Source: an uncultured Candidatus Saccharibacteria bacterium
Lineage (GTDB): Bacteria; Patescibacteriota; Minisyncoccia; UBA6257; 2-01-FULL-56-20
Reading direction: 5' to 3'
Assembly: GCA_964568535.1 (NCBI GenBank)
Contig: CAZMPQ010000002.1
Location: forward strand, 1 to 47,466
DNA: 47,466 bases
Shown: positions 15,553 to 15,838 of the stretch, in pieces
Numbering within the stretch: the first letter of the stretch is position 1
Layout: each line of letters begins with the position of its first letter
Position numbers and translations under genes: made by a program
The notes under the pieces: generated by a model
Seen by the model: only the letters and a program-made list of their open reading frames with translations
Told to the model about the DNA's origin: nothing
The model's database searches: none

Positions 15553-15748
15553 GACTTTTTACTTTTGAGAACCGGCGTCGCGGTTGCTCCAGTCCCGACG
15601 CGAGGTCGGGACCCCGACTCCTTTGTCTATATGAAAAAACGAAGCGTCGGGGCGGCGAACTGCGACCTGCGCTCTCGCCCCGCCAACCCACGCTTCGCAC
15701 GGGGCCAAGCTTGGCGGGGCTCCGAAAGCTTCTCAAAAGTAAAAAGTC
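15553..15748 (+). ncRNA. candidate structured 3'-trailer element X1, closed by a 19-bp perfect inverted repeat
   Basis: GACTTTTTACTTTTGAGAA (15553-15571) / TTCTCAAAAGTAAAAAGTC (15730-15748) enclose GC-rich hairpins, e.g. GTCCCGAC..GTCGGGAC at 15592-15612. Confidence 0.4.
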
Positions 15749-15782
15749 TCCGCGCATTGGTTCTAGAAAAGCAGATCTTTTT

Positions 15783-15838
15783 AGGAAAATAAGGACTTAA
15801 TGTAGCTCCGAAAAGCCCATCGGAGCTTCGATTGTATA
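15783..15838 (+). repeat. module Y1: AGGAAAATAAGGACTTAATGT-AGCTCCGA-loop-TCGGAGCT-..TGTATA
   Basis: Hairpin 15804-15811 / 15820-15827. Homologous to 19664-19717. Confidence 0.8.

Follow-up and report, generated by a model that had tools for sequence, protein, structure and literature searches.

What kind of sequence fills the 671 nt between secY and adk in an uncultured Candidatus Saccharibacteria bacterium, and how did it come to lie there? The locus belongs to a stretch of 47,466 nt (contig CAZMPQ010000002.1 of assembly GCA_964568535.1, forward strand; hereafter the window), in which the secY stop codon ends at 15544 and the adk ATG starts at 16216, in agreement with the spacer length reported by a reading of the letters alone (hereafter the original prediction). 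That prediction had described a long inverted repeat in the spacer, here called X1, together with a paralogous element behind greA, and had listed a non-autonomous mobile element among the candidate roles. This role is favoured by multi-copy dispersal, dispensability, identical copies at other loci, variable occupancy of sites, copies within genes and stems that appear to be templated. Our preferred reading, to which we give a probability of roughly 0.62, is that X1 and the element 3′ of greA are copies of a dispersed, non-coding, non-autonomous palindromic insertion element of about 135 nt, which acts at the level of DNA and resembles the Rickettsia palindromic elements (RPE). This family, referred to below as the A family, (i) is multi-copy and dispensable, (ii) has been duplicated to new loci without target duplication, and (iii) has undergone gain, loss and replacement at sites common to sister genomes.

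The 19-bp inverted repeat of X1 is perfect (19 of 19 nt complementary) and encloses 158 nt of G+C-rich hairpins, just as originally described. Folded as plus-strand RNA, X1 forms a closed multi-hairpin structure (-106 kcal/mol; z = -6.5 against dinucleotide shuffles), and the minus strand folds nearly as well (z = -4.6); the greA-3′ element folds like X1, with z = -5.0 on both strands. The genome-wide search for the bracketing sequences that had been proposed was of limited use, since the exact words returned only the two copies in the window and three chance matches in coding DNA, and BLAST and a covariance model were needed to recover the family. BLAST searches with X1 gave partial matches in its own genome and in many relatives, often to the two ends of the query separately. 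Thirteen copies were cut out by hand and aligned using MAFFT (alignment A1), from which RNAalifold gave a three-way junction, and a covariance model (R1; 135 positions, 40 pairs) was built. X1 scored 121.9 bits against this model (E = 2e-30) and is a composite, consisting of a standard A-family element of about 135 nt and a second palindromic element of 60 nt nested in the loop of hairpin P2. In the family as a whole the closing helix P1 comprises 17-19 bp, often followed by 4-13 further copy-specific bp, and encloses the hairpin P2, with the loop CTCCAG, and the bipartite hairpin P3/P4, the conserved unpaired junction motifs being GAACCGG, CTCCAGCGG, CCTGCNTCTC, ACCNAGC and CTCCGANAGCTTC. The two blocks by which X1 and its counterpart behind greA had originally been linked (5′ TTTGAGAACCG..GCTCCAG and 3′ CTCCG..AGCTTCTC) turned out to be conserved junction motifs of the family. 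A 3′ tail with the consensus TYCGC-N2-4-TGG recurs in the right flanks of many copies.

Genomes, contigs and loci are labelled as follows: G000 is the genome that contains the window and other G labels are its relatives, C labels are contigs or loci of G000, and L labels are scored loci; all copy numbers are lower bounds. With R1, nine copies were recovered in the 829-kb genome G000, dispersed on eight contigs beside secY, greA, secD, dnaX, an aldolase gene and other genes. Copies were found in 87 of 125 genomes of the same taxonomic family (39 of 48 genera), with at least 26 copies in the richest genome, and in 141 of 301 genomes of the order (108 of 197 genera); across a sample of the phylum the distribution was patchy (19 of 401 genomes; 14 of these belong to other classes, where the highest score was 102 bits). 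The A family is represented by hundreds of copies in related ultra-small Patescibacteria, and the element is conserved in relatives rather than unique to this genome. A congener (G002) has no copy, and 38 of the 125 genomes of the taxonomic family are without one.

The scan of Rfam 15 that had been suggested gave no match at the gathering score in the window and none at E ≤ 1 on nine copy-bearing loci; small ribozymes, 6S RNA, signal recognition particle (SRP) RNA, Y RNA-like and other families of that release were rejected, their covariance models being unmatched. Phage and plasmid records contained no match to the A family and viral contigs of IMG/VR no exact match to its pattern, for which reason a phage or plasmid origin was rejected as well. 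No known repeat, insertion sequence (IS) or Rfam family was matched among those searchable, and we found no description of the A family in the literature. The tRNA-trailing elements at 27924-28092 and 42752-42951 of the window do not match R1 and belong to a different family.

Duplication to new loci can be read from copies that are 100% identical and yet occupy different loci, as in G126 and G180. In G126 the shared unit consists of 11 nt, the A element and 18 nt, and no target duplication was seen; identical copies at different loci of G126 and G154 likewise have unrelated flanks and no duplication. Gain or loss is seen where filled and empty sites can be compared between sister genomes. At C34, G000 has a copy and G001 an empty site; what was inserted there runs from one P1 arm to the other, followed by a tail of about 45 nt. 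At C14, both G000 and G001 carry a copy together with a second module described below (module 2), and G002 and G004 have the empty site. The greA site holds an A copy in G000 and in G001 (with stems unrelated to those of G000), a member of another family (S) in G003, and nothing apart from a plain terminator in G002. The secY site holds an A copy in G000 and a mini-A in G013, S-family elements in G001, G003, G004 and G005, and is empty, with adk directly next, in G002, G011, G014 and G007.

Between G000 and G001, identity at four-fold degenerate sites in the flanking genes is 58% (42% differ), and A copies at the same locus in these two genomes share 0.38-0.48 identity at paired columns, compared with 0.50 ± 0.08 for pairs from different loci. 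The G000 copy that one G001 copy resembles lies at a different locus. For the greA, C14 and C30 copies shared by G000 and G001, vertical descent was rejected, as same-locus copies are no more alike than random pairs; it follows that the sites have been reused and the copies replaced, and not simply inherited.

The stems of the element were examined with the covariance analysis across relatives that had been proposed, and compensatory changes were found in 37 of the 40 pairs (RNAalifold on A1). A further alignment (A2) was fitted to the model, and the MAFFT alignment A1 shows the same covariation. Over 84 distinct copies standard pairs occupied 95.5% of the cells as against 58.6% in shuffles; none of 500 shuffles reached the observed pairing and controls with slid partners did not exceed 52%. 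Changes on both sides of a pair accounted for 1240 cells versus about 30 for changes on one side only. The cells comprised 3068 Watson-Crick pairs, 44 G.T pairs (one invariant T.G left out), 72 A.C and 79 other mismatches. RNA families under selection commonly show G.U intermediates. In the A family, A.C is at least as frequent as the wobble pair, as would result from neutral decay of a perfect DNA palindrome or from repeated copying of one arm from the other. Moreover, the helix extends by at least four perfect bp past the model in 36 of 92 copies versus 1 of 552 controls, the extensions being copy-specific and up to 13 bp long. In the C30 copy of G000 the extension takes in the stop codon of the aldolase gene (TAGGCGC/GCGCCTA), and in G013 the last three secY codons and the stop (GGCATAGAATAA/TTATTCTATGCC). 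Here it is the 3′ arm that must have been derived by copying.

The positions of 97 copies with flanks were scored by a mirrored open reading frame (ORF) test. Twenty-five lay at most 16 nt after the stop codon of a co-oriented ORF of at least 190 codons, typically at a gap of 3-10 nt, compared with one copy by the mirrored measure (p = 8e-7). Another eight pointed the other way, at a distance of 24-51 nt from a convergent stop, which fits a polar element with a 3′ tail. The adjacent stop was TAG in 18 of the 25 cases versus 35% of the long ORFs of G000, which alone served as background (p = 2e-4), and at two loci (L031, L047) the stop codon of the gene lies within the P1 arm. Five of the nine copies in G000 are stop-adjacent, namely those behind secY, greA and the genes for an NADH-dehydrogenase-like oxidoreductase, an SLT transglycosylase and a class II fructose-bisphosphate aldolase; a terminator-like module comes after four of the five. 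Elsewhere the C34 copy abuts the -35 box of a divergent promoter, three copies lie behind tRNA genes (L045, L101, L117), and at least eight are in frame within real genes confirmed by Pfam, five in sense and three in antisense orientation. The hosts are MnmA (the same loop in G014, G005 and G249), a PIG-L deacetylase, a ComF-like phosphoribosyltransferase, a class-V aminotransferase, a PMT_2 glycosyltransferase and the anticodon-binding domain of an aminoacyl-tRNA synthetase. Copies persist at places where little harm is done: after a stop codon but before the terminator, next to a -35 box on its upstream side, 3′ of tRNA genes, or as in-frame additions to permissive loops of proteins.

The MnmA of G000 has no A insert. 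Its gene (contig C18, ~12322-12355 and 12680-12712) carries an in-frame heptamer repeat (GTCAGGT/ATCAGGT), read as QVSGIRYQ-like peptides, and the first of these tracts occupies the exact loop in which G014, G005 and G249 carry the A element.

Other palindromic families share these sites with the A family or are nested with it. The 60-nt element in X1 (N) is absent from most A copies and appears as a gap block in A1; stand-alone N copies occur on contig C5 of G000 (~26545-26605) and in G018, G007 and G012, and in other A copies (L003, L008) that point of the P2 loop is taken by a different insert. A larger repeat (B) encloses the A element in G180 (L051-L058), G154 (L059), G078 (L032) and G189 (L120). 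It has a long variable outer helix of its own and reads ..GGCCGAGCGGGCATGGTG[A element]CGAGCGAGGCCGAGAGCGAGCGC-hairpin-TTGAYAGCGTG..; family B is not present in G000. The S family is a different hairpin-closed element of about 200 nt (TTTTTGCGAACC ... GGTTCGCAAAAA) at the same post-stop sites of relatives, its copies lying after the secY stop in L067 (G001), L088 (G003), L069 (G004) and L070 (G005) and after the greA stop in L155 (G003). Just downstream of complete copies there are pieces from the 3′ end of another A copy (GGCTCCGAGAGCTTCC..), at 21795-21822 of contig C9 and in the right flanks of L037 and L109. It looks as if newer copies land beside the stop codon and push older ones away.

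Among known systems, the RPE come closest to this behaviour. RPE-1 to RPE-10 (Ogata et al. 2000) are gene-less palindromic repeats of ~100-150 bp in hosts with reduced genomes, with an unknown mechanism of mobilisation, and their many copies lie either between genes or within unrelated housekeeping genes, in the latter case in frame and contributing extra loops to the protein (PMC10969869). The A family agrees with the RPE in size and in its intergenic and in-frame placement, a likeness of behaviour. It differs in its phylum, in its three-way junction, whose unpaired motifs are conserved and whose closing helices are specific to each copy, and in its strong preference for positions 3-15 nt after stop codons; A copies are moreover read in different frames and in both orientations, with no single conserved frame, which argues against membership in the RPE.

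[quoted passage not shown] The A family is likewise small, non-autonomous and structured and nests with other palindromic elements. Its terminal repeats have in common the 5 innermost bp (GAGAA/TTCTC) as well as a pattern rich in T on one side and in A on the other; the remainder of the 17-19-bp helix is copy-specific. A search with nhmmer, which covered G000, found nine full copies and three fragments, none of them a split copy enclosing an ORF as expected of a parent IS. A classical MITE derived from an IS with a DDE transposase was rejected on the lack of target-site duplication and, in this genome, of a parent IS. In its behaviour the A family matches the RPE and the nested pneumococcal MITEs (PMC10969869).

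Repetitive extragenic palindromes (REP), with the bacterial interspersed mosaic elements (BIME) and REPINs, are extragenic palindromes of 20-40 bp with a GTAG/CGTC head, mobilised by REP-associated tyrosine transposases (RAYT) of the Y1/HUH type (PMC3733652). They share with the A family a position often just 3′ of genes and the absence of target duplication, and on the REP side there is recognition of a folded single strand; the A element differs in its length of about 135 nt and in its other conserved motifs, without a GTAG/CGTC head. The Y1 transposase (PF01797) occurs in 22 of the 125 genomes of the taxonomic family as compared with 87 that carry the A family, and is absent from G000, G001, G003, G004 and G071 among others, each of which has 8-18 A copies. 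IS200/IS605 elements or RAYT were accordingly rejected as mobilisers, as Y1_Tnp does not co-occur with the element.

The imperfect palindromes called attC in integrons measure 57-141 nt, are conserved in structure, lie directly 3′ of co-oriented ORFs and are recognised as folded single strands. The A family resembles them as a structure-conserved palindrome located directly 3′ of ORFs and co-oriented with them, and differs in the lack of cassette arrays, in its copies within genes, in its housekeeping neighbours and in having no integrase linked to it. The attC core sites RYYYAAC ... GTTRRRY were not seen on inspection, the ends of the A element reading ..TTTGAGAACCGG and GCTTCTCAAA... Quasipalindrome correction by template switching (Ripley; Lovett laboratory) reportedly makes imperfect inverted repeats perfect, can extend them and is known at single loci. 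Its expected traces would be changes on both sides of a pair with no wobble intermediates, and helices reaching into the flank, as in the A family; as a mutational process known from single loci, it would here have to act on a whole repeat family.

Several observations weigh against a mobile DNA element or also fit a function of the RNA. No mobilising enzyme was identified, Y1/HUH transposases being absent from G000 and from most carriers, and no excision or insertion event was seen directly; without target-site duplication or parent IS the element is not a classical MITE. The stop-adjacent copies are biased 25:8 towards the sense orientation (p = 0.005) and lie inside transcription units, the unpaired motifs are kept across the whole order, and both would also be compatible with a function in the 3′ untranslated region (3′UTR). 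If insertions were merely tolerated, neither the narrow distance of 3-15 nt to the stop codon nor the surplus of TAG would be accounted for. The gene contexts in relatives were taken from an ORF-length heuristic without a gene caller. A functional 3′UTR module, in which a stable closed junction protects the mRNA 3′ end, insulates or uncouples cistrons, serves as a processing site or releases a small RNA, with loops as protein-binding sites, would account for the stop-adjacent excess over the mirrored measure and for the five copies of G000 that follow real genes, four of which are then followed by a terminator-like module. It is at odds with stems that show no enrichment of wobble pairs and hardly any one-sided changes, with antisense copies, copies upstream of promoters and in-frame copies on either strand, with the absence from a congener and from 38 of 125 genomes, and with orthologous sites that hold unrelated copies or a different family. 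We regard it as unlikely, and it retains this much weight because of the sense bias and the conservation of the motifs.

A very improbable alternative is a folded single-strand recombination site comparable to attC or to attP(+) of CTXphi, on which a tyrosine recombinase of the host (Xer-like or other) would act and which would mark points of DNA exchange. Conserved structure with free stem sequence, few conserved unpaired bases, the position directly 3′ of ORFs with an orientation bias, the absence of target duplication, the reuse of sites and the recurrence of GCTCC, which marks the left junction in ~15-18 of 93 copies and is present at the nested element in the P2 loop as well as in the J3/1 junction, would all suit such a site. 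The copies form no arrays or cassettes, however, their neighbours are housekeeping genes in conserved order, the R- and L-box consensus is lacking on inspection, in-frame copies within genes make no sense as cassette boundaries, and no recombinase could be linked to it. Least probable of all is an element that moves as RNA, or a small ribozyme, attaching itself to the 3′ ends of RNAs and then being copied into DNA again. The copies directly behind stop codons and tRNA genes, the conserved three-way-junction core and the absence of a protein gene within the element agree with it, but no Rfam ribozyme was matched even at E ≤ 1, the stems lack a wobble signature, both orientations occur within genes, and no reverse transcriptase was seen linked to the element, although no search for one was made.

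For the mobile palindromic element that we favour, a working scheme can be outlined. One arm would be copied from the other, by template switching at the hairpin or quasipalindrome or by repair, which would keep the stems complementary, and the same copying could lengthen the helix into the flank; complementarity would then not result from selection on an RNA. The conserved unpaired motifs may be the recognition features of a structure-specific enzyme that acts on the folded single strand. The 3:1 sense bias could arise from strand-specific action of such an enzyme or from selection by transcription, and the placement of copies from survivorship in very compact genomes, possibly combined with real targeting of TAG-proximal sites and hairpin loops. 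A bolder version, which we consider doubtful, is that the A, S, N, B and tRNA-trailing families together constitute a fold-dependent class of mobile elements without a gene of their own, whose three-way-junction core is recognised, or even catalytic, as a folded single strand. Such elements would home to hairpin loops and to the first nucleotides after TAG stops and build their closing helix by inverted copying of the adjacent target, with a chemistry outside the known DDE, HUH, serine/tyrosine recombinase and retro-element classes.

The second module that follows both elements in the window was correctly described as shared between them (86% identity over 43 nt), although the genome holds four copies of it instead of two. 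A hidden Markov model (HMM) built from the two window copies found exactly these four, each 35-80 nt 3′ of a stop-adjacent A copy, with the consensus AAGGTAGCTCCG-N8-CGGAGCT followed by T's. At greA a G+C-rich hairpin with a T tract downstream of the gene has the features of an intrinsic terminator; at secY the T tract is poor and the terminator scan did not call the hairpin, and the C14 and C30 copies have TTTTTAT tails. The box upstream of the hairpin at the greA site (AGGAAAAATAAG) is conserved in G001 and G003 with different hairpin stems, and G002 has an ordinary terminator there. Among the relatives searched, module 2 was not found outside G000 and G001. We read module 2 as the Rho-independent terminator module of the transcription unit, genus-specific, paralogous within the genus and located behind stop-adjacent copies, and not as a part of the order-wide conserved element. 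Insertion of the A element always into a terminator loop was rejected as a general rule, as at greA the element lies upstream of the terminator and not inside it.

Table 1. Positions of the A-family elements, their parts, module 2 and neighbouring genes in the window.
Feature	Position	Strand	Remarks
X1, A-family three-way-junction palindromic element	15553-15748	+	196 nt owing to nested insert
P1, 5′ arm	15553-15571	+	GACTTTTTACTTTTGAGAA; partner 15730-15748; every P1 pair covaries over 84 distinct copies
Junction CCGG	15572-15575	+	
P2	15576-15587 / 15655-15666	+	
P2 loop TCCAG	15588-15592	+	conserved; alignments A1, A2
Nested N element	15593-15652	+	CCCGACGC..GTCGGGACCCCGAC..GCGTCGGGG; right after P2-loop motif GCTCCAG
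Junction CTGCGCTCTC	15667-15676	+	
P3/P4 hairpin	15677-15720	+	internal loop CCAAGC
Junction TCCGAAAGC	15721-15729	+	
P1, 3′ arm	15730-15748	+	TTCTCAAAAGTAAAAAGTC
3′ tail TCCGCGCATTGG	15749-15760	+	tail part of inserted DNA at filled versus empty C34 site
Module 2, copy 1	15783-15838	+	box AGGAAAATAAGGACTTAATGT; hairpin AGCTCCGA-N8-TCGGAGCT (15804-15827); weak T tract
Second A-family copy	19492-19624	+	3 nt after greA stop; R1 117.2 bits; arms 19495-19510 / 19606-19621
Module 2, copy 2	19664-19717	+	box, hairpin 19686-19709, then TTTTGTATAT; terminator scan match; predicted intrinsic terminator of greA
secY	14276-15544	+	Pfam SecY, E = 7e-100; TAG stop 8 nt before X1
Orphan 59-codon Cys-rich ORF	15882-16061	+	AGGAGG site 6 nt upstream; in secY-adk spacer
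adk	16216-16800		Pfam
Second adenylate-kinase-like gene	16800-17393		Pfam; next in order map, then GT2 glycosyltransferase gene
greA	18871-19488	+	Pfam GreA_GreB domains; TAG stop 3 nt before second A copy
lysS	19791-21236		Pfam

Part of the long secY-adk spacer is accounted for by the orphan ORF listed in Table 1, for which no homologue and no Pfam family were found. Two adenylate-kinase-family genes stand in tandem between this spacer and map. A motif of the form ATTCGTATATTCG(GGAAYACTC)ATG lies directly 5′ of the start codons of adk and other genes (16158-16215, 4941-4980, 10876-10928 and 33476-33533), often doubled with an 18-nt period, and probably serves these genes as a common promoter or leader module. 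Repeats of 7 nt in inverted arrays, (GTATCAA/GTATCAG)n ... (CTGACAC/CTGATAC)n, were observed at 14182-14270, 21233-21313, 531-600, 8709-8745 and 39491-39527, where they form long hairpins at gene junctions, for example directly upstream of the secY start and directly after the lysS stop. In several genes of G002, G001 and G000 a -10-like box stands merely 6-7 nt upstream of the ATG (e.g. TATAATGGCCCTATG), a sequence feature which suggests leaderless mRNAs in this clade.

The Patescibacteria have some of the smallest and most streamlined of bacterial genomes, yet about half of the genomes of this order carry the A element, in numbers that reach at least two dozen copies. If the preferred reading is true, selfish palindromic DNA would be an overlooked source of variation in protein length and operon structure in the candidate phyla radiation: the element would separate secY from adk in the window, and elsewhere would add loops of ~45 residues to MnmA, an aminoacyl-tRNA synthetase and other enzymes. 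Its stems, with free sequence, perfect pairing and no wobble, would then offer a clean natural example of templated palindrome maintenance, and would also show that templated palindromes can mislead the discovery of RNAs by covariation. Whatever machinery reads the junction motifs and places copies behind stop codons could be a structure-specific nuclease or recombinase of a new type. A covariance model of the family would flag hundreds of features that are at present unannotated and would explain odd insertions in conserved proteins.

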